Assembly: GCA_963848075.1 (NCBI GenBank)
Contig: CAWKCB010000004.1
Location: 1,270,376-1,334,375 of the forward strand
DNA: 64,000 nt
Reading direction: 5' to 3'
DNA from: an uncultured Bacteroidota bacterium
GTDB taxonomy: Bacteria; Bacteroidota; Rhodothermia; Rhodothermales; Rubricoccaceae
Every line of letters starts with the position of its first letter. Within the stretch, counting starts at the first letter, position 1. The translations under genes and the position numbers were made by a program. The notes under the pieces are model-generated. The model worked only from the letters and a program-made list of their open reading frames with translations, was not told where the DNA came from and did no database searches. Below are positions 9,050 to 49,766 of this stretch, piece by piece.

Positions 9050-9469
9050 ATGCGCACGCTCCTCCTCTCCGCCGCCTTGCTGGCGACCGCCGCCAGCGCC
9101 CAGGACGTCCTCTCGGTCACGCCCGACGTGCCGACGGTCGGCGAGCCGGTCACGGTCACGTTCAGCGCGCCCGTCGACTCGGTCACGGTGACGTACCGGC
9201 CCGGAGCCGTGACAGCCCACGAAGAGCGGTTCACGCCCGGCGCAGCTGCGTTCACGTTCACCCCCGAGCGGGCCGGCGTGGTCTCGGTCGCCTCGGGCGA
9301 CGCGAGCCAGAGCCTGTCGGTCCGCTTCCGGGGGACGCCGGTCGGCGGGCTGATCGTGATGATCCTGGCTGGCCTGATCCTGTTCGGCGGGGCCGGCCTG
9401 GCGCTCCGGGCGCTGCTGGCCGACGGCCACCGGATCGAGCCCGACCCGACGCTCCGGCCGGACACGTGA
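9050..9469 (+). CDS. hypothetical secreted, C-terminally membrane-anchored protein
   Basis: Signal peptide MRTLLLSAALLATAASAQ, a beta-rich middle, and C-terminal TM segment GGLIVMILAGLILFGGAGLAL. Confidence 0.6.
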   Translation: MRTLLLSAALLATAASAQDVLSVTPDVPTVGEPVTVTFSAPVDSVTVTYRPGAVTAHEERFTPGAAAFTFTPERAGVVSVASGDASQSLSVRFRGTPVGGLIVMILAGLILFGGAGLALRALLADGHRIEPDPTLRPDT

Positions 9470-9879
9470 CCCGAGCGCTCGCGGTCGCGGTCGTGCTCGC
9501 CGTCGGCGCCCACGCCCAGACGCCGGCCGACGCTCCCGTCCGCTACGAGTCGGTCCGCCTGGGCCACGGTCTCGGCCCGGCTCCCGTGGCCGGGACTGTC
9601 GCCTCTCCTCCACCCGGAGACGACTGGTTCGGCCGCGACAAGGCGCTCCACGCCGGCGGCTCGTTCCTGCTGACGCTGGCGGGCCAGTACGTTCTGACGG
9701 ACAAGGCCGCGCTCTCGAACGGCGACGCGCTGCCAGTCGCCGCCGGGGCCGCGCTCGCGCTCGGCCTGGCGAAGGAGGTGATGGACAGCCGTCGCGAGCG
9801 GGGCCCCCACTTCTGCTGGCGCGACCTCGCCGCCGACGCGGCCGGCGTGGCCCTGGCGGCGGCCGTGGTGGGGCTGTAG
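9466..9879 (+). CDS. YfiM-like (DUF2279) protein
   Basis: GRDKALHAGGSF ... GLAKEVMDSRRERGPHFCWRDLAADAAG parallels E. coli YfiM (QDKAQHF ... KELYDSR ... WSWKDLAWDVAG). GTGA overlap with the upstream gene. Confidence 0.7.
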   Translation: MTRALAVAVVLAVGAHAQTPADAPVRYESVRLGHGLGPAPVAGTVASPPPGDDWFGRDKALHAGGSFLLTLAGQYVLTDKAALSNGDALPVAAGAALALGLAKEVMDSRRERGPHFCWRDLAADAAGVALAAAVVGL

Positions 9880-9970
9880 GGTTCGGGGTTCGGGGTTCGG
9901 GGTTCGGGGTTCGGGGTTCGGGGTTCGGGGTTCGGGGTTCGGGGTTCGGGGTTCGGGGTTCGGGGTTCGG
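9879..9970 (+). repeat. perfect heptanucleotide tandem array (GGGGTTC) x about 13
   Basis: TTC recurs every 7 nt at 13 positions from 9882 to 9968, with GGGG between each. The array starts with the last G of the TAG stop at 9877-9879. Confidence 0.97.
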
Positions 9971-10061
9971 CCGGGACGACTCCGCGCCGGCCTCGATGAT
10001 CGAAGGCCACGGGGCGACAAGACCCCTCCGCACTCGGCGCACCTCGGACTCGCTCGGAGCT

Positions 10062-10089
10062 GAACCCTGAACCGAGAACCCCGAACCGG
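10062..10089 (+). repeat. four degenerate inverted heptads (GAACCCT GAACCGA GAACCCC GAACCGG)
   Basis: GAACC recurs at 10062, 10069, 10076 and 10083. This is the reverse complement of the GGGGTTC unit and lies 92 nt downstream of the main array. Confidence 0.85.
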
Positions 10090-10131
10090 ACGTCGCCCGG
10101 CAGCGCATCCACTCGCCCAACCTCCCCTCCG

Positions 10132-10161
10132 CCATTTCCCCGTCCCCATTTCCCATTTCCC
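10132..10161 (-). repeat. C-rich heptads CCATTTC CCCGTCC CCATTTC CCATTTC (GGGAAAT/GGGGACG on the minus strand)
   Basis: Direct reading shows four 7-nt units upstream of purF. Confidence 0.85.
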
Positions 10162-10218
10162 GCGAGCGGAGCGAGTCCCCCTGCCGTTAACCTGTCCCTC
10201 CGGCCTCCCCCCGACACC

Positions 10219-11733
10219 GTGGACAAAGCGCGCGACCACTGCGGCATCTTCGGCGTGTTCAACCACCCCGACGCCGCCCGGCTGAGCTACTTCGGGCTGC
10301 ACGCCTTGCAGCACCGCGGCCAGGAGTCGGCCGGGATCGTGACGAGCGTCTACGACGAGGCGAAGGGGCGCCGCGTGATGCCGGTGCTCAAGGACTTCGG
10401 GCTCGTGCTCGACGTGTTCACCGACAAGGACCGGTTCGACGACACACTCGTCGGCGACGCGGCGATCGGCCACACCCGGTACTCGACGTCGGGGAGCGCG
10501 ACGAACCCGGCCAACATCCAGCCGTTCGTCGTCCACGACCGCGAGGGCCACTTCGCGCTGGGCCACAACGGCAACCTGTCGAACGCCCGGGCGATCCGCG
10601 AGCGCTTGGTCGAGCGAGGGACCCTGTTCAGCTCGTCGTCCGACACCGAGCTCATCCTGCACCTGGCGGCCCAGAGCAAAGAGGAGGGGCCGGTGGCCCG
10701 GATGGTCGACGCGCTCCACCAGTGCGAGGGCGCGTTCTCGCTCGTCATCCTGACCGACGACGCGCTCATCGCGGCGCGCGACCCGAACGGGTTCCGCCCG
10801 CTCGCGCTCGGCAAGCTCCCGCCGGCCGAAGGCCGCGAGCACTCGGGCTGGGTGGTGGCCTCGGAGTCGTGCGCGTTCGACATCATCGGGGCCGAGTACG
10901 TCCGCGACATCGAGCCCGGCGAGATCCTGGTCATCGACCGGGCCGGCGTCGAGCGCGTCGAGGCCGGCGGCGACTTCAACGGGGTCTGCATGCCGCGCCA
11001 CCACGGCGTGAGCCAGTGCGTGTTCGAGTACGTCTACTTCTCACGGCCCGACTCGATGGTGTTCGGGGCGACCGTCGACAAGGTCCGCCGCAAGATGGGC
11101 AAGCGGCTCGCCCACGACGCGCCGGTCCCCCTCGTCGAGAAGGGCGACGGCAAGCGGCCCATCGTGATGTCGGTCCCGGACTCGTCCAACACGGCGGCCA
11201 TCGGCTACGTCTCGGAGTCGAACAAGATGGGCCACCGCTGCAAGCTGGACATCGGCCTGATCCGGAACCACTACGTCGGGCGCACCTTCATCTCGCCGGG
11301 CCAGTCGAGCCGCGAGCAGCGCGTGCGGACCAAGTTCAACCCGGTCGCCGGCGTCCTGAAAGACCGGGTCGTGGTGATGGTCGACGACTCGATCGTGCGC
11401 GGGACGACGGCCCGCCAGCTGGTCCGGATGGTCCGCGACGCGGGCGCGGCCGAGGTCCACTTCCGGTCGGCGAGCCCGCCGGTCCGGTGGCCGTGCTTCT
11501 ACGGGATGGACTTCCCGTCGCGCGAGGAGCTCGCGGCCAACAAGCACGGGGCCGTCGACGCGATCGCCGACTGGCTCGGGGTCGACTCGCTGGGCTACCT
11601 CTCGGTCGAGGGGATGCTGGCGGCGGTCGAGGAGGCCCACGAGAGTAGGGACCGCTACTGCCACGCCTGCTTCTCGGGCGAGTACCCGGTGCCGATCGAG
11701 ACGGGCGTGGTCAAGGAGGAGAACGACTGGTAG
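10219..11733 (+). CDS. purF: amidophosphoribosyltransferase (glutamine PRPP amidotransferase), Fe-S type
   Basis: Short propeptide then CGIFGVF (N-terminal nucleophile Cys). PRTase motif VVMVDDSIVRGTT. Cys ligand pattern CVFEYVYF, WPCFYG, CHACFSGEYP. GTG start. Confidence 0.95.
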   Translation: MDKARDHCGIFGVFNHPDAARLSYFGLHALQHRGQESAGIVTSVYDEAKGRRVMPVLKDFGLVLDVFTDKDRFDDTLVGDAAIGHTRYSTSGSATNPANIQPFVVHDREGHFALGHNGNLSNARAIRERLVERGTLFSSSSDTELILHLAAQSKEEGPVARMVDALHQCEGAFSLVILTDDALIAARDPNGFRPLALGKLPPAEGREHSGWVVASESCAFDIIGAEYVRDIEPGEILVIDRAGVERVEAGGDFNGVCMPRHHGVSQCVFEYVYFSRPDSMVFGATVDKVRRKMGKRLAHDAPVPLVEKGDGKRPIVMSVPDSSNTAAIGYVSESNKMGHRCKLDIGLIRNHYVGRTFISPGQSSREQRVRTKFNPVAGVLKDRVVVMVDDSIVRGTTARQLVRMVRDAGAAEVHFRSASPPVRWPCFYGMDFPSREELAANKHGAVDAIADWLGVDSLGYLSVEGMLAAVEEAHESRDRYCHACFSGEYPVPIETGVVKEENDW

Positions 11734-13209: not shown

Positions 13210-13953
13210 ATGGACCGCGACCTCGCTCTTCCCCGCTACGGACTCGTCTACCGCCTCTTCGGCGTCGTCGTGGCGGTGTGGGTGACGGTCGTGGTGGTGC
13301 TCGGCATCTTGGGCCCGGTCACGAACCTGCCGATCCTGGAGCACACCGCCCGGAACCTCTACTTCCACGTCCCGATGTGGTTCGTGCTGTACGCCGGCGC
13401 CGTCGCCGGGGCGTGGCACGCGGGGCGCTACCTCGCGACCGGCCGGACGGTCCACGACGTCCGCTCGGAGGCGGCCTGGATGGTGTCGACGGTGGCGGGC
13501 GTGACGGCACTCGTGACGGGCGTGATCTGGGCCCGGTTCACGTGGTACCAGGGGACCGGGCTCTGGTGGAGCCCCGAGCCCCGGCAGAACATGGTGGCCG
13601 TCCAGCTGCTGATCTCGGGGGCGTACTTCGTGCTCCGGGGCTCGCTCGACCGGCCCCGCCAGCGCGCCCGGTTGTCGGCCGTCTACGCGCTCTTCGCGAC
13701 CGCCTCGATGCCGTTCCTGACCTACGTCCTCCCCCGGCGGATGGCGAGCCTGCACCCTGGCGCCGAGGGCAACCCGGCCTTTAGCGAGATGGACATCGCT
13801 GCCGACATGCGGTGGATCTTCTACGCCGCCGCGGTGGGCTTCCTCATGCTCGGCTGGTGGCTCTACACCCAGCGCGTCCGCGCCACCGTGGCCACGCTCC
13901 GCACCGAGGCGCTGGGCGCGCCGGACCCCGTCGCGGCCCCCGTCGTCTCATGA
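13210..13953 (+). CDS. ccmC: heme exporter / cytochrome c assembly protein CcmC
   Basis: Polytopic protein with W-rich loop WARFTWYQGTGLWWSPEPRQ (variant WWD motif). It is followed by ccmD- and ccmE-like genes. ATG 13210 chosen inside the longer ORF. Confidence 0.8.
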   Translation: MDRDLALPRYGLVYRLFGVVVAVWVTVVVVLGILGPVTNLPILEHTARNLYFHVPMWFVLYAGAVAGAWHAGRYLATGRTVHDVRSEAAWMVSTVAGVTALVTGVIWARFTWYQGTGLWWSPEPRQNMVAVQLLISGAYFVLRGSLDRPRQRARLSAVYALFATASMPFLTYVLPRRMASLHPGAEGNPAFSEMDIAADMRWIFYAAAVGFLMLGWWLYTQRVRATVATLRTEALGAPDPVAAPVVS

Positions 13954-14171
13954 TCCAGGCCGACACCACCATCGACGTCGTCGACGACGGGGCCGTGCAG
14001 GCCACGACGGCTCAGCCCCAGGGCATCGAGCGCGTGATGCTGGCCGAGGACAAGCTGCCGGTCGTGCTGGCGGTCGTCCTCGTGGTCTGGCTCGGCGTCT
14101 TGCTCCTGCTGCTCCGGACCGACCGCCGGCTCGCCCGCGTCGAGCGCGACCTGGCGGACCGAGAGGCCTAG
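13950..14171 (+). CDS. CcmD-like small membrane protein
   Basis: 73-aa ORF with ATGA overlap to ccmC, a single TM (LPVVLAVVLVVWLGVLLLLL) and a basic tail. Call rests mainly on position between ccmC and ccmE. Confidence 0.55.
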   Translation: MIQADTTIDVVDDGAVQATTAQPQGIERVMLAEDKLPVVLAVVLVVWLGVLLLLLRTDRRLARVERDLADREA

Positions 14172-16467: not shown

Positions 16468-16569
16468 GGGGGCGTGCGGGGTGGAACGTGCGACGTGGAA
16501 CGTGTCCGACGCACGGAGGAGAGCGGCAACCTCTCAACGCCGCACGTTCAACACCGGACGTTCAACGTC

Positions 16570-17949
16570 TCACAGGTACAGCAGCGTCGCCGTGACGAAG
16601 AAGATGGTCAGGCCCAAGATGTCGTTCGAGACCGTGATGAACGGGCCCATCGCCAGGGCCGGGTCGATGCCGACGCGGTTGAGCACGAGCGGGACCGTCG
16701 CCCCGATGAGCGTCGAGAGCACGATGACGATCTGGAGCGACAGCGCCGCCGTGATCGCGAGCTGGCCCGTGTCGTCGCCGAAGCCGGACACCAGGACGAT
16801 CAGCGCCAGCGCCGCCGCCAGCACGGCCCCGTTCAAGAGCGCGACGGCCAGCTCCTTCCCGATCCGCCGGGCCAGGTCGCCCCGCCACAGGTCGCCCGAG
16901 GCCAGGCCCTGCACCGCGATCGCCGACGACTGGATGCCCGCGTTGCCGGCCATCGCCATCACGATGGGGATGAACAGCGCGAGCACGGGGGCCACCTGCA
17001 GCGCCTCCTCGAACCCGACGATGACCAGGCCGGACACGTAGGCGCCGACGAGCCCCAGCAGCAGCCACACCAGCCGGCCCCGCGAGACGGCGAACACGCT
17101 CGACGACAGCTCCTCCTCGCCCGTGATGCCGACGGCCCGCTGCAAGTCCTCCTCGGCCTCCTCGCGGATCACGTTCATCACGTCGTCGATCGTGATCCGG
17201 CCGAGCAGCCGGCCGCCGGCCGAGACGACGGGGAGCGCGACCAGGTCGTACCGCTCCATGATCCGGGCGACGTCCTCCTGGTCGAGGTCGGGCTCGACCG
17301 ACACGATGTCCGTCTCGGCGATCTCGGAGACGGGCGTGTCGGCCGGGGACAGCAGGAGCCGCTTGAGCGGGACGACGCCCGCCAGCCGGTCGTCGGCGTC
17401 GACGGCATAGACGGCGAACACGGGGTCGACGGCGTCGGCGTTGGCGCGGACGGCCTCGGTCGCCTCCGCCACGGTCGCCGTGAGCGGGACGGCCACCACC
17501 TCGGTCGCCATCAGCCCGCCGGCCGTGTCGTCGGCGTAGCTCAGCAGCGCCTCGATGTCGACGGCGTCCTCGAGCTGGACGAGCACGTCGTCGGCCTGGG
17601 TGACGTCGACGTCGGCGAGCACGTCGGCCTGGTCGTCGGACGCGAGCGGGTCGATGAGCGTGACCAGCTCGGTCGTGCTCAGGCCGTCCAGGAGGTCGAC
17701 CCGCTCGGCGCTCTCGAGCTCGGGCAGCGTCCGGCTCGTGACGTCGTCGGGGAGCCAGCGGAACGCGACCCGGGCCAGGTCGGGCGGGAGGTGCTGCAAC
17801 AGCGCCGCGACGTCGGCCGGCCGGAGCTCGGCGACCAGGTTGAGCACGTGGCCCCGGTGGCCGGCCTCGACCAAGTCGGCGACGACGTCGACCAAGTCGT
17901 CGTCGACGAGCGGCGAGGCGTCGGAGGAAACGGCGACGGGGTCGCTCAC
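16570..17949 (-). CDS. mgtE: magnesium transporter MgtE
   Basis: MgtE-N region, CBS pair, and TM domain with GIDPALAMGPFITVSNDILGL. GTG 17949 chosen; it forms a GTGA overlap with the rsmA stop. Confidence 0.9.
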   Translation of the reverse strand: MSDPVAVSSDASPLVDDDLVDVVADLVEAGHRGHVLNLVAELRPADVAALLQHLPPDLARVAFRWLPDDVTSRTLPELESAERVDLLDGLSTTELVTLIDPLASDDQADVLADVDVTQADDVLVQLEDAVDIEALLSYADDTAGGLMATEVVAVPLTATVAEATEAVRANADAVDPVFAVYAVDADDRLAGVVPLKRLLLSPADTPVSEIAETDIVSVEPDLDQEDVARIMERYDLVALPVVSAGGRLLGRITIDDVMNVIREEAEEDLQRAVGITGEEELSSSVFAVSRGRLVWLLLGLVGAYVSGLVIVGFEEALQVAPVLALFIPIVMAMAGNAGIQSSAIAVQGLASGDLWRGDLARRIGKELAVALLNGAVLAAALALIVLVSGFGDDTGQLAITAALSLQIVIVLSTLIGATVPLVLNRVGIDPALAMGPFITVSNDILGLTIFFVTATLLYL

Positions 17950-18941
17950 GGGCCGGGGCGGGAGGCGGCGGCGCCCAGGTGACGGGCCAAGAGGACGAAG
18001 TCGGCCGGGGAGACGGCCTCGGGGCGGAGCGTGGCGGCCCACTCGGGGACGTCGACGCCGGCGGCGCGAGCGAGCGGGCCCAGGCTGTTCCGGAGCATCT
18101 TCCGACGCTGCCCGAACGCCGCACGGACCGTCCGCTGAAGCGCCGCGAAAGGTACGTCCGGCGGCTCGGCGGACGCGAAGTCGATGGCCACCACGGCGCT
18201 CTCGACCGCGGGCGGCGGGCGGAAGCACGCGGCCGGCACGTCGAGCAGCTTCTCAGCCCGGGCGTAGAGCGCGAAGTACACCGACAGCGTCCCGTAGGTC
18301 TTCGACCCGTGCGGCGCCGCCAGCCGGTCGGCCACCTCGCGCTGGACCATCACGACGGCCCGGGCCACGACCTCGCGGGCGTCGAGCAGCGCGAACAGGA
18401 TCGGCGACGTGATGTAGTACGGCAGGTTGCCGACGACGTGGAGGCGCGGGGACCGGGGACTGGGGACCGAGGACTGAGGAGCACTGGGTAGGTCTCCTCC
18501 CCCCGTCGGGGGGAGGCCGGGAGGGGGGCGCTCGCCCGAGCCCAGCGGACGGTCCGACAGGCCCTCCCCCCGGCCCCCTCCCGGTGGCAGGGGGGGACTC
18601 TCCGGAGCGCTCGTTGCCGTCTCCGCCGCGAGCGCGCGCCAGTCGGCCTCCAGGACGTCGGCATGGCGGACGTCGAGGGCGGGGAAGCGTCGGCGGAGGT
18701 GGGCGATCGACTCCTCGTCCACTTCGAGCGCCACCAGATCCGGGTACCGGCGCAACAGGTCGCCCGTCAGCGCGCCCTCGCCAGGGCCGATCTCGACCAC
18801 CCGCGCGCCGGCCGGCGCCCCGACGGCGGCCACGATCCGGTGGATCACGCCGTCGTCGGTCAGGAAATGCTGGCCGAGGCTCTTCTTCGGGCGGACGGAC
18901 ACGTGGGGAGGTGGAGACGAGAGGACGGAGAGTAGGCCCAC
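17946..18941 (-). CDS. rsmA: 16S rRNA (adenine1518/1519-N6)-dimethyltransferase RsmA/KsgA carrying an in-frame insertion of about 60 aa
   Basis: RPKKSLGQHFL, VVEIGPGEGALT (SAM motif) and VGNLPYYITSPIL are present. 331 aa, with a P/G-rich segment (residues about 107-166) between the SAM-binding region and GNLPY. Confidence 0.9.
   Translation of the reverse strand: MGLLSVLSSPPPHVSVRPKKSLGQHFLTDDGVIHRIVAAVGAPAGARVVEIGPGEGALTGDLLRRYPDLVALEVDEESIAHLRRRFPALDVRHADVLEADWRALAAETATSAPESPPLPPGGGRGEGLSDRPLGSGERPPPGLPPTGGGDLPSAPQSSVPSPRSPRLHVVGNLPYYITSPILFALLDAREVVARAVVMVQREVADRLAAPHGSKTYGTLSVYFALYARAEKLLDVPAACFRPPPAVESAVVAIDFASAEPPDVPFAALQRTVRAAFGQRRKMLRNSLGPLARAAGVDVPEWAATLRPEAVSPADFVLLARHLGAAASRPGP
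18444..18623. repeat. repeat- and hairpin-rich element embedded in frame in rsmA
   Basis: Heptads GGGGACC GGGGACT GGGGACC GAGGACT GAGGAGC at 18448-18482. Perfect hairpin CCTCCCCCC (18496-18504) / GGGGGGAGG (18508-18516). 11-bp inverted repeat CCGGGAGGGGG (18517-18527) / CCCCCTCCCGG (18574-18584). Confidence 0.75.
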
Positions 18942-49717: not shown

Positions 49718-49766
49718 GGGGAACGGGGAACGGGGAACGGGGAACGGGGAACGGGGAACGGGAAGG
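49718..49766 (+). repeat. heptanucleotide tandem array (GGGGAAC) x 6 plus a partial unit
   Basis: Six perfect units at 49718-49759, then GGGAAGG. The array starts at the nucleotide adjacent to the PNP start codon, so the PNP mRNA carries (GTTCCCC)6 immediately 5' of ATG. Confidence 0.97.

Follow-up and report, generated by a model that had tools for sequence, protein, structure and literature searches.

A perfect GGGGTTC heptamer array beside purF in a Rubrivirga species, probably a tolerated slippage expansion

The YfiM-like–purF spacer

The window, by which we mean the whole 64-kb stretch of DNA analysed here, belongs to a Rubrivirga species (Rhodothermales) with a GC content of about 72%. 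The locus under study lies in a spacer between a small lipoprotein gene and purF, both read from the same strand (Table 1). The product of the first gene matched the NCBIfam YfiM family (E = 4.4e-12) and, more faintly, Pfam DUF2279 (E = 0.0096); the earlier label of yfiM-like is therefore acceptable as a description, although the score of 46 bits stays under the family cut-off of 117. Upstream of purF, Rhodothermales keep an ortholog with the C-terminus ...VVGL*. The identity of purF, which starts with GTG, is well supported, with 462 bits against TIGR01134 (cut-off 350).

Table 1 Features of the locus and of a second perfect array in the window
Feature	Coordinates	Strand	Evidence
YfiM-like small lipoprotein gene, 137 aa	9466..9879	+	ORF list, family profiles, conserved ortholog
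Perfect heptanucleotide array, (GGGGTTC)13	9879..9970	+	TRF, chance test, G4Hunter, ViennaRNA
Unique spacer between the convergent arrays, 91 nt	9971..10061	+	Sequence, fold, alignment
Convergent partner, four degenerate units	10062..10089	-	Sequence, TRF, pattern search
Third heptamer array, GGGAAAT GGGAAAT GGGGACG GGGAAAT	10132..10161	-	Alignments
GTTAACCT motif, putative -10-like promoter element	10186..10193	+	Conservation in alignment
purF, amidophosphoribosyltransferase, 504 aa	10219..11733	+	TIGR01134, Pfam GATase_6/7
Second perfect array, (GGGGAAC)6.4	49718..49762	+	TRF score 90, sequence

The spacer opens with a perfect heptanucleotide array, which TRF reported as 13.1 copies, period 7, of the unit GGGTTCG (equivalent to GGGGTTC), with 100% matches, no indels and a score of 184. 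The array is 92 bp long, its first base is the last G of the TAG stop codon of the YfiM-like gene (9877-9879), and it contains 13 G-tracts, one GGG followed by 12 GGGG, separated by TTC. Both TRF and the sequence thus bear out the original observation of a perfect 13-unit array opening in a stop codon, and the distance given there also agrees with ours, the array lying 249-340 nt upstream of the purF start. The G-rich strand is the coding strand of the YfiM-like gene and the sense strand of purF. The array occupies non-coding DNA, between the YfiM-like stop (9879) and the purF start (10219), and the only ORFs crossing it are spurious high-GC ones. When the window was searched with a 14-mer, allowing up to two mismatches, 15 matches were obtained, compared to 1.46 expected by shuffling, and none of 100 shuffles reached 15.

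Downstream of the array, and separated from it by a stretch that contains short local stems and is common to no relative, lie four inverted units, GAACCCT GAACCGA GAACCCC GAACCGG on the plus strand (GAACCNN), which read CCGGTTC GGGGTTC TCGGTTC AGGGTTC on the minus strand. These inverted copies, which had also been noted, are real: the pattern GAACCNNGAACCNNGAACCNNGAACC, for which 0.00 chance matches are expected in the window, has its sole match beyond the array at 10062-10087. A third heptamer array, G-rich on the non-coding strand, lies 58 nt before purF; the closest relative (L202) has exactly the same sequence there.

In silico, the potential of the array to form G-quadruplexes (G4s) is predicted to be strong. 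Its mean G4Hunter score was 2.09, and the G-quadruplex model of ViennaRNA gave -93.9 kcal/mol with three G4s for the array alone, compared to -37.0 kcal/mol as a hairpin. For the region 9860-10110 folded as RNA, the structure was more stable than that of shuffled sequences (z = -2.86), the inverted units at 10062-10089 paired with array units in the minimum-free-energy fold, and the energy fell from -142.4 to -173.4 kcal/mol once G4s were allowed. Folded as single-stranded DNA, the region did no better than shuffles (z = -0.8). At this computational level, then, the claim of a G4-capable perfect microsatellite with an inverted partner stands.

At the other end of the spacer, the GTTAACCT motif lies about 25-30 nt from the purF start codon (25 nt in the window), and an alignment of 18 Rubricoccaceae purF upstream regions shows no variation at its T, A, C and T. 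Its conservation suggests a putative purF promoter element; a scan for the sigma-70 promoter consensus found none at the locus. The motif belongs to about 100 nt adjoining purF that the window has in common with L202, while 215 nt separate it from the end of the array. Since the conserved block and GTTAACCT lie next to purF, the array is likely to sit upstream of the purF promoter and to belong to the 3' trailer of the YfiM-like gene; its part of the spacer is the distal one, which is not conserved. Rfam gave no match at gathering score anywhere in the window and none at E ≤ 1 in 9400-10400, a scan of 9300-10400 with the intrinsic-terminator consensus found no terminator-like site, and in the sequence the inverted units at 10062-10089 are followed by no T-run.

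Relatives, public data and other arrays in the window

The order of the YfiM-like gene and purF is kept in relatives within the Rhodothermales, and none of more than 20 orthologous spacers, including those of L202, R. marina and SAORIC476, carries the array. L202, whose PurF is 95.4% identical, has an unrelated REP-like palindrome at the position of the array, and the complete spacer measures 82 nt in R. marina and 82-121 nt in some relatives. Between species, therefore, the array varies by presence or absence, and on the evidence of these spacers purF dispenses with it in relatives. The loci L189 and L210 are one sequence and provide no copy-number contrast.

In public sequencing runs, a 668-nt Logan contig (run X1) is identical to the window and starts exactly at 10132, and a 200-nt contig (run X18) matches 9832-9876 with two mismatches and then continues for 155 nt, with no match to 9972-10131. 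We found no contig from these runs spanning the array, a flank-anchored metagenome scan with GGGGCTGTAGGGTTCGGGGTTC gave no matches, and exact-protein look-ups with the YfiM-like protein, PurF and a 139-aa protein of the window returned no record.

Arrays of four or more GGGGTTC units occur in at least 120 metagenome contigs, mostly inside compound heptamer arrays, and an all-against-all comparison of the flanks of the 120 listed arrays found no locus twice. One contig among the matches listed belongs to the Vicinamibacterales (Acidobacteriota). Among the listed loci, 19 of 103 had a GAAC-phased partner on the downstream side and none of 97 had one on the upstream side; the pairs with the GGGGTTC unit are 19 convergent and 0 divergent. 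In the same listed loci the GGTTC/GAACC core is kept, the other two positions vary, and the arms reach about 130 nt. In a crude survey of gene context at the metagenome loci, the arrays lay closest to the stop codons of upstream same-strand ORFs, with 15 of the listed arrays within 60 nt, compared to 5 beside an upstream ORF of opposite orientation.

Within the window, about five to six G-rich heptamer arrays are present. The second perfect one adjoins the ATG (49717, minus strand) of a purine nucleoside phosphorylase gene (NCBIfam PRK08202, 336 bits) and is G-rich on the non-coding strand of that gene, whose start codon is fixed by the alignment of residue 9 with position 6 of the profile. 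A further convergent pair, GTGGAAC/GTTCAAC, lies at 16469-16569. Counted simply as GGG-phased heptamer arrays, the window holds 8, which is not above the 14 expected by shuffling and not significant. When 704 kb of Rhodothermota loci were surveyed together with the window, period 7 dominated the periods not divisible by 3: it accounted for 28 arrays of at least three copies, whereas period 5 gave 2 and period 8 gave 7.

Kinship with known repeat systems

The array is a further member of a described class, the G-rich heptameric simple sequence repeats (SSRs) of Rehm et al. 2015, in which the unit GGGGTTC and a Rubrivirga (Rhodothermales) host are new. That class comprises quadruplex-forming heptamers, GGGAATC in Xanthomonas and GGGGA(C/T)T in Nostoc, in perfect or heterogeneous arrays of 2-26 units, the longest perfect array having 14. 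Of these arrays 89-93% are intergenic, 70-75 form convergent plus/minus pairs, their length varies strongly between close species, they are tied to no single functional class of genes, and their G-rich tracts avoid the sense strand near start codons. The same study showed genome-wide abundance, a preference for four units, transcription and in-vitro G4 formation (PMC4692102). Our array resembles this class in its 7-nt unit, its G3-4 tract, its tandem and intergenic arrangement, and its convergent opposite-strand partner forming an inverted repeat. The strand rules are alike too, as 9879-9970 overlaps a TAG on the coding strand and 49718-49762 abuts an ATG on the non-coding strand, and so is the difference in presence or length between close species, the array being absent from L202. 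The differences are the unit, GGGGTTC/GGGGAAC rather than GGGAATC/GGGGATT, the host, which belongs to a phylum outside that study, and the G4, which here is a prediction.

Two other repeat families are related more loosely. As far as the survey of prokaryotic LSSRs (units of 5-11 nt) by Mrázek et al. 2007 is represented in PMC4679880 and PMC4692102, heptanucleotides are the commonest in many bacteria, units of a length not divisible by 3 occur in non-coding DNA only, and the repeats were proposed to arise by polymerase slippage; the array shares with these repeats a tandem tract far above chance length, whereas the survey, as represented there, is a statistical one without G-richness, strand rules or inverted partners. 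The TAACTGA heptamer direct repeats described by MacGregor 2015 in Beggiatoaceae, cyanobacteria and some Bacteroidetes are intergenic, reach 43 copies and often lie directly at start or stop codons. They are strain-specific, the spacers of relatives being shorter and without repeats, several heptamer arrays per spacer are common, and most are 'forward' immediately upstream of start codons, for which a role as a site of translational regulation was proposed (PMC4679880). The array is likewise one of several intergenic heptamer arrays in its spacer, lies directly at a stop codon and is absent from relatives, some of them with shorter spacers, but TAACTGA is AT-rich, does not form G4s and contains stop codons.

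Other systems agree in appearance and differ in context. With the phase-variable contingency SSRs of Haemophilus and Neisseria the array shares a perfect tandem repeat in which slipped-strand length change is expected. Contingency-locus SSRs lie inside reading frames or between the promoter elements of surface or restriction genes, whose expression they switch; our array follows a stop codon, and over 200 nt separate it from the putative promoter of purF, a housekeeping gene. The telomeric repeats of eukaryotes (for example TTGGGG, TTAGGG, TTTAGGG) are also short, G-rich and endowed with G4 potential, and the array had been called telomere-like. This is a resemblance of sequence only: the array is internal, about 9.9 kb into the window, both flanks are genes of conserved order, there is no telomerase or linear-replicon context, and nothing here links GGGGTTC to a telomere. 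A CRISPR was rejected for want of spacers, and a mobile-element insertion was rejected as no transposase or integrase lies nearby in the window (in L202 the REP-like palindrome occupies this position).

Origin and possible roles of the array

The explanation that we favour, and consider probable, is that the array is a G-rich heptamer SSR produced by a lineage-specific slippage expansion, tolerated where it stands and without control over purF. Replication slippage, which we infer as the origin, would have amplified a single GGGGTTC unit within a short, degenerate array of NNGGTTC units to 13 identical copies. A recent expansion is most likely, since no substitution has accumulated in the array and since it has no counterpart in any related genome examined; the earlier suggestion of recent expansion is upheld on this second ground. 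The array would then be a tolerated, slippage-prone element, presumably devoid of a dedicated function, with at most a structural side effect on the YfiM-like transcript, whose 3' trailer could fold into G4s and/or a long imperfect hairpin.

That trailer is also where the strongest functional proposal places it. If the array and its inverted partner formed a 3'-end element of the YfiM-like transcript, acting as a terminator, an insulator or a protection of the mRNA 3' end, one would understand why the consensus scan found the spacer to lack a canonical hairpin-plus-U-tract terminator, why the RNA fold is steadier than shuffles and gains from G4s, and why the arrays among the listed metagenome matches favour an upstream same-strand stop codon, 15 to 5 in the crude survey. 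The class as a whole prefers such a position, and most of its Xanthomonas members are reported as transcribed (PMC4692102). However, relatives of the same gene order have no array and spacers as short as 82 nt, which means that any 3'-end function is dispensable or supplied otherwise; the arms are unbalanced, with 13 units facing 4 over 91 nt, and the single-stranded DNA fold is no better than shuffles. We therefore regard a 3'-end element as rather unlikely, and the terminator originally proposed fares poorly in its specific form, with neither an Rfam family nor an intrinsic-terminator consensus at the locus. That the array acts in the purF leader or promoter, as a regulatory G4 or as a length-variable switch that tunes purine biosynthesis, is most improbable. 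The array does lie on the purF sense strand within a few hundred nucleotides of the start codon, and the second perfect array is also beside a purine gene, but the conserved promoter-like block with GTTAACCT sits less than about 100 nt from the start codon, the purF genes of relatives have array-less spacers of 82-121 nt, no Rfam riboswitch or leader appeared even at E ≤ 1, and the G-tracts of the class shun the sense strand near start codons (PMC4692102). The prediction of a regulatory G4 in the purF leader is thus unlikely to hold, since the array precedes the probable promoter and relatives manage purF without it.

The heptad spacing of GTTC/GAAC could alternatively provide a tandem platform for a protein that reads it, such as a cold-shock/OB-fold or nucleoid protein. 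The retention of the GGTTC/GAACC core in the metagenome loci among the matches listed would then reflect protein specificity, and there is a precedent in CspB, of which one molecule binds each heptamer of a direct repeat (MacGregor 2015, PMC4679880). The locus has no linked gene for a candidate protein, however, close relatives are without the array, and the units in the window differ (GGGGTTC, GGGGAAC, GGGAAAT, GGGGACN), so that its arrays have no single motif in common; we consider such a platform very unlikely. Hardly credible, in turn, is an artefact of assembly or sequencing affecting the array or its copy number, even though heptamer arrays break short-read assemblies in this group, with two contigs (L004 and L007) ending at such arrays, and even though the identical X1 contig begins just downstream, at the third array. 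Against an artefact, the 92 bp of the array are shorter than an ordinary read, it runs without interruption into flanks that have the gene order of relatives, the window has another perfect array of this type at 49718, and the GGGGTTC repeat recurs in at least 120 independent metagenome contigs.

A reading that goes beyond this locus sees the array as an unbalanced member of a cross-phylum class of long intergenic hairpins with NNGGTTC/GAACCNN arms, whose polarity would reflect a function or a directional mechanism rather than neutral slippage. Neutral slippage alone does not readily account for the strict positional and polarity rules of the class, which hint at selection or at a directional mechanism beyond the explanation favoured above; for this array we nevertheless judge the proposal unlikely. 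If it were true, such elements might switch co-transcriptionally between G4 and hairpin and in this way terminate transcription in both directions in high-GC bacteria, with no U-tract, or alternatively the inverted arm might be created by G4-induced template switching.

The array by itself opens no new question. In annotation it should not be called a purF riboswitch or leader, nor a telomere relic, and its copy number calls for caution in short-read assemblies. The class of G-rich heptameric repeats is extended to the Rhodothermota and, through metagenome matches, to the Acidobacteriota, and as a new unit, GGGGTTC, shows the same strand rules and convergent pairing, the case for these rules being general is strengthened. 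A culturable Rubrivirga whose perfect 13-unit array adjoins a housekeeping gene would be well suited to testing the function of the class.

Two regularities of orientation may be recorded here. In the class, the G-rich strand points away from the nearest ORF in every case, and all 19 pairs among the metagenome matches listed are convergent. Read on either strand, these 19 have the G-rich arm on the 5' side and the C-rich arm on the 3' side, which is the arrangement described as 'convergent' in Xanthomonas.

The (GGGGTTC)13 array and its inverted partner

Between a gene for a small YfiM-like lipoprotein (NCBIfam YfiM, E = 4e-12, below cut-off; DUF2279, E = 0.01) and purF (TIGR01134, 462 bits), the window, of ~72% GC, carries an array with period 7, 13.1 copies, 100% matches, no indels and a TRF score of 184, by a wide margin the highest among the 134 TRF rows for the window. 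It begins on the final G of the TAG stop codon that closes the ORF at 9466-9879, and its G-tracts are one GGG and twelve GGGG with TTC between them. The original prediction had described both the 13 perfect units and their start inside a stop codon, as well as an inverted partner, which lies 91 nt 3' of the array and reads GAACCCT GAACCGA GAACCCC GAACCGG on the plus strand, that is, four degenerate units of the opposite strand; all coordinates and distances in that prediction proved correct. The phased GAACCNN×4 pattern is expected 0.00 times by chance, and a probe of two units, allowing up to 2 mismatches, matched 15 times in the window against 1.46 expected, a count attained in 0 of 100 shuffles. 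The observation is confirmed, and its interpretation is partly supported.

Heptanucleotide units have been described as the most abundant class of long simple sequence repeats (SSRs) in most genomes, with polymerase slippage proposed as the cause (Mrázek et al. 2007, as cited in MacGregor 2015, PMC4679880). Rehm et al. 2015 (PMC4692102) reported G-rich heptamers, GGGAATC in Xanthomonas and GGGGA(C/T)T in Nostoc, of 2-26 units and 89-93% intergenic, with 70-75 pairs 'with convergent orientation', one array per strand, that form inverted repeats. These repeats vary extensively in length between Xcc and Xac, form G4 in vitro and are mostly reported as transcribed, and no function was identified for them (PMC4692102). 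In its G-rich 7-nt unit, intergenic position, convergent partner and variation between close relatives the window array matches this class, and it differs from the Xanthomonas and Nostoc repeats in its unit sequence, GGGGTTC, and in its phylum. The element is a new member of the class, in a new phylum and with a new unit.

Folded as RNA, 9860-10110 is predicted to reach -142.4 kcal/mol (z = -2.86 against shuffles), with inverted units paired to array units, and the ViennaRNA G-quadruplex model gives -173.4 kcal/mol, with two four-layer G4s and a hairpin. For the array alone the predicted energy goes from -37.0 as a self-hairpin to -93.9 kcal/mol with three G4s (ViennaRNA), and G4Hunter gives it a mean of 2.09, with a local peak of 2.44. 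When the region is modelled as single-stranded DNA and G4 terms are omitted, its fold is no better than those of shuffles (z = -0.8). These G4 and hairpin folds come from models and do not show that the structures form in the cell.

The YfiM-like/purF spacer in relatives

Throughout Rhodothermales an SNF transporter gene, a small ORF, the YfiM-like gene and purF follow one another in this order. The window PurF shares 95.4% identity with that of a Rubrivirga sp. whose genome is 4.4 Mb, and 91-93% with those of R. marina and Rubrivirga sp. SAORIC476. The spacer was read in three close relatives and also in more than 20 genomes and MAGs; none of the orthologous spacers held GGGGTTC repeats, and even a two-unit GGGGTTC was absent from 89 Rhodothermota purF loci. 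The spacer is only 82 nt long in R. marina and 121 nt in SAORIC476. In the closest relative, a Rubrivirga sp. (L202), the YfiM-like gene has its stop after the same residue as in the window (…VVGL*) and is followed by unrelated sequence with a REP-like palindrome, whereas the ~100 nt adjoining purF align with the window nearly base for base, and a third heptamer array, of the CCATTTC type, has the same number of units in both. The distal half of the spacer thus turns over quickly and the proximal half is stable. Across the sequences compared the array is specific to the window's lineage, and the lack of a counterpart in more than 20 orthologous spacers supports the recent expansion that had been proposed for it. 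The array is new in the lineage, perfect and placed like the known class, and it is dispensable for the adjoining genes in relatives.

The REP-like palindrome of L202 (2700-2900), CGTAGGGGCACGCCGGTGGCGTG … CACGCCACCGGCGTGCCCCTACG, stands at the place of the window array; palindromes resembling CCCCTACGG recur in other Rhodothermales spacers (L018-L021) and may belong to a dispersed palindromic element family. The YfiM-like/purF spacer has acquired different heptamers repeatedly, and heptamer arrays upstream of purF are assembly breakpoints in related MAGs and isolates: one contig (L004, 1-24) terminates in (CCCCCAT)3.4, another (L007, 1-110) ends at or near such an array, and a Logan contig of the public sequencing run X1, identical to the window, starts at 10132, again at or near one. 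The region 3' of purF varies as well: L202 (4641-7307) has a ParE-type toxin and RHH antitoxin followed by an IS481-family transposase, and the window has a HAD hydrolase gene encoded on the other strand.

The putative purF promoter and a proposed origin of the array

In the aligned purF upstream regions of 18 Rubricoccaceae loci the motif GTTAACCT is kept ~25-30 nt 5' of the start, with a C-rich, G-poor stretch after it and, in most loci, a GAAGATT- or TTGAAA-like block before it; it does not resemble the sigma-70 consensus. We infer from this conservation a core purF promoter with a short leader, a candidate Rubricoccaceae signature. Such a reading agrees with the spacers of relatives, whose 82-121 nt leave no room for more, and with the Rfam search, which found neither a leader nor a riboswitch, whether at gathering score or at E ≤ 1. 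Since the array lies at least 215 nt 5' of the motif, it most likely falls outside the purF transcript and within the 3' trailer of the YfiM-like gene. This distance and the short spacers of relatives speak against the G4 in the purF leader suggested in the original prediction, and as the Rfam result also counts against it, we regard a leader G4 formed by the array as highly improbable.

The main rival explanation places the effect at the other gene, with the array acting as a 3'-end structure of the YfiM-like transcript, through U-tract-less termination, insulation from purF or protection from 3'-exonucleases; we consider this rather unlikely. In the origin that we propose, slipped-strand amplification of one unit from a short degenerate NNGGTTC array would have produced the window array, which would be perfect because it is recent.

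Heptamer arrays in metagenomes and elsewhere in the window

At least 120 metagenome contigs carry (GGGGTTC)≥4, most of them with 60-72% GC and 4-14 copies. Among the matches listed, the arrays usually form part of compound arrays with a constant GGTTC core and drift at the two remaining positions; 19 of the 103 loci with enough sequence have a GAAC-phased array downstream and 0 of 97 have one upstream, and the G-rich arm is 5' in 19 of 19 pairs. Simple slippage does not explain this strict polarity. Long hairpins with arms of NNGGTTC / GAACCNN arrays, 50 to ~130 nt, are found in the metagenome contigs L174, L182, L189/L210 (one sequence, 13760-14070) and L192. L189 is assigned to Vicinamibacterales (Acidobacteriota) by an identical MutS, and its hairpin occupies a 350-nt divergent spacer that is 65 nt in a strain with a 92%-identical MutS. 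The window element (13 perfect units, 91-nt spacer, four degenerate inverted units) has this architecture in an unbalanced form. By rough gene calls, 15 arrays among the matches listed have the stop of an upstream same-strand ORF within 60 nt and 5 have an upstream opposite-strand ORF within that distance, and this crude survey of gene context agrees with the published rule.

We also compared array periods, multiples of 3 excluded, over the window together with 640 kb of related loci. With 3 or more copies, there were 28 arrays of period 7, 2 of period 5, 7 of period 8 and 3 of period 10, and the perfect ones numbered 7, 1 and 0 for periods 7, 5 and 8, respectively; period 7 is the stand-out class among the periods compared.

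Repeat arrays and the putative promoter motif in the window
Feature	Position	Context
(GGGGTTC)13	9879-9970	between YfiM-like gene and purF
GAACCNN ×4	10062-10089	inverted partner
CCATTTC-type array (GGGAAAT-type units on the non-coding strand, 58 nt 5' of purF)	10132-10161	
GTTAACCT	10186-10193	T, A, C and T positions invariant in 18 loci
GTGGAAC/GTTCAAC convergent pair	16469-16569	whole spacer between two minus-strand genes
GGGGACN units (CGGGGAC ×4)	18447	inside ORF 17946-18941, minus strand
(GGGGAAC)6.4	49718-49762	adjoins ATG of minus-strand purine nucleoside phosphorylase gene

Standing directly at the ATG of a minus-strand gene, (GGGGAAC)6.4 is G-rich on the non-coding strand of that gene. 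Both perfect G-rich window arrays adjoin purine genes (purine nucleoside phosphorylase and purF), which is probably a coincidence, since members of the described class are not biased towards any gene function. In the convergent pair, the GTGGAAC-type units lie by the start codon of the left gene and the inverted GTTCAAC-type units by the stop of mgtE, the right-hand gene. The CGGGGAC units and a G/C-rich palindromic stretch occupy 18447-18600, in frame within rsmA/ksgA (Pfam RrnaAD, E = 3e-44), where they encode a P/G/S-rich insertion of ~60 aa directly before the GNLPY motif; this appears to be a repeat of the heptamer type that is tolerated within a protein loop.
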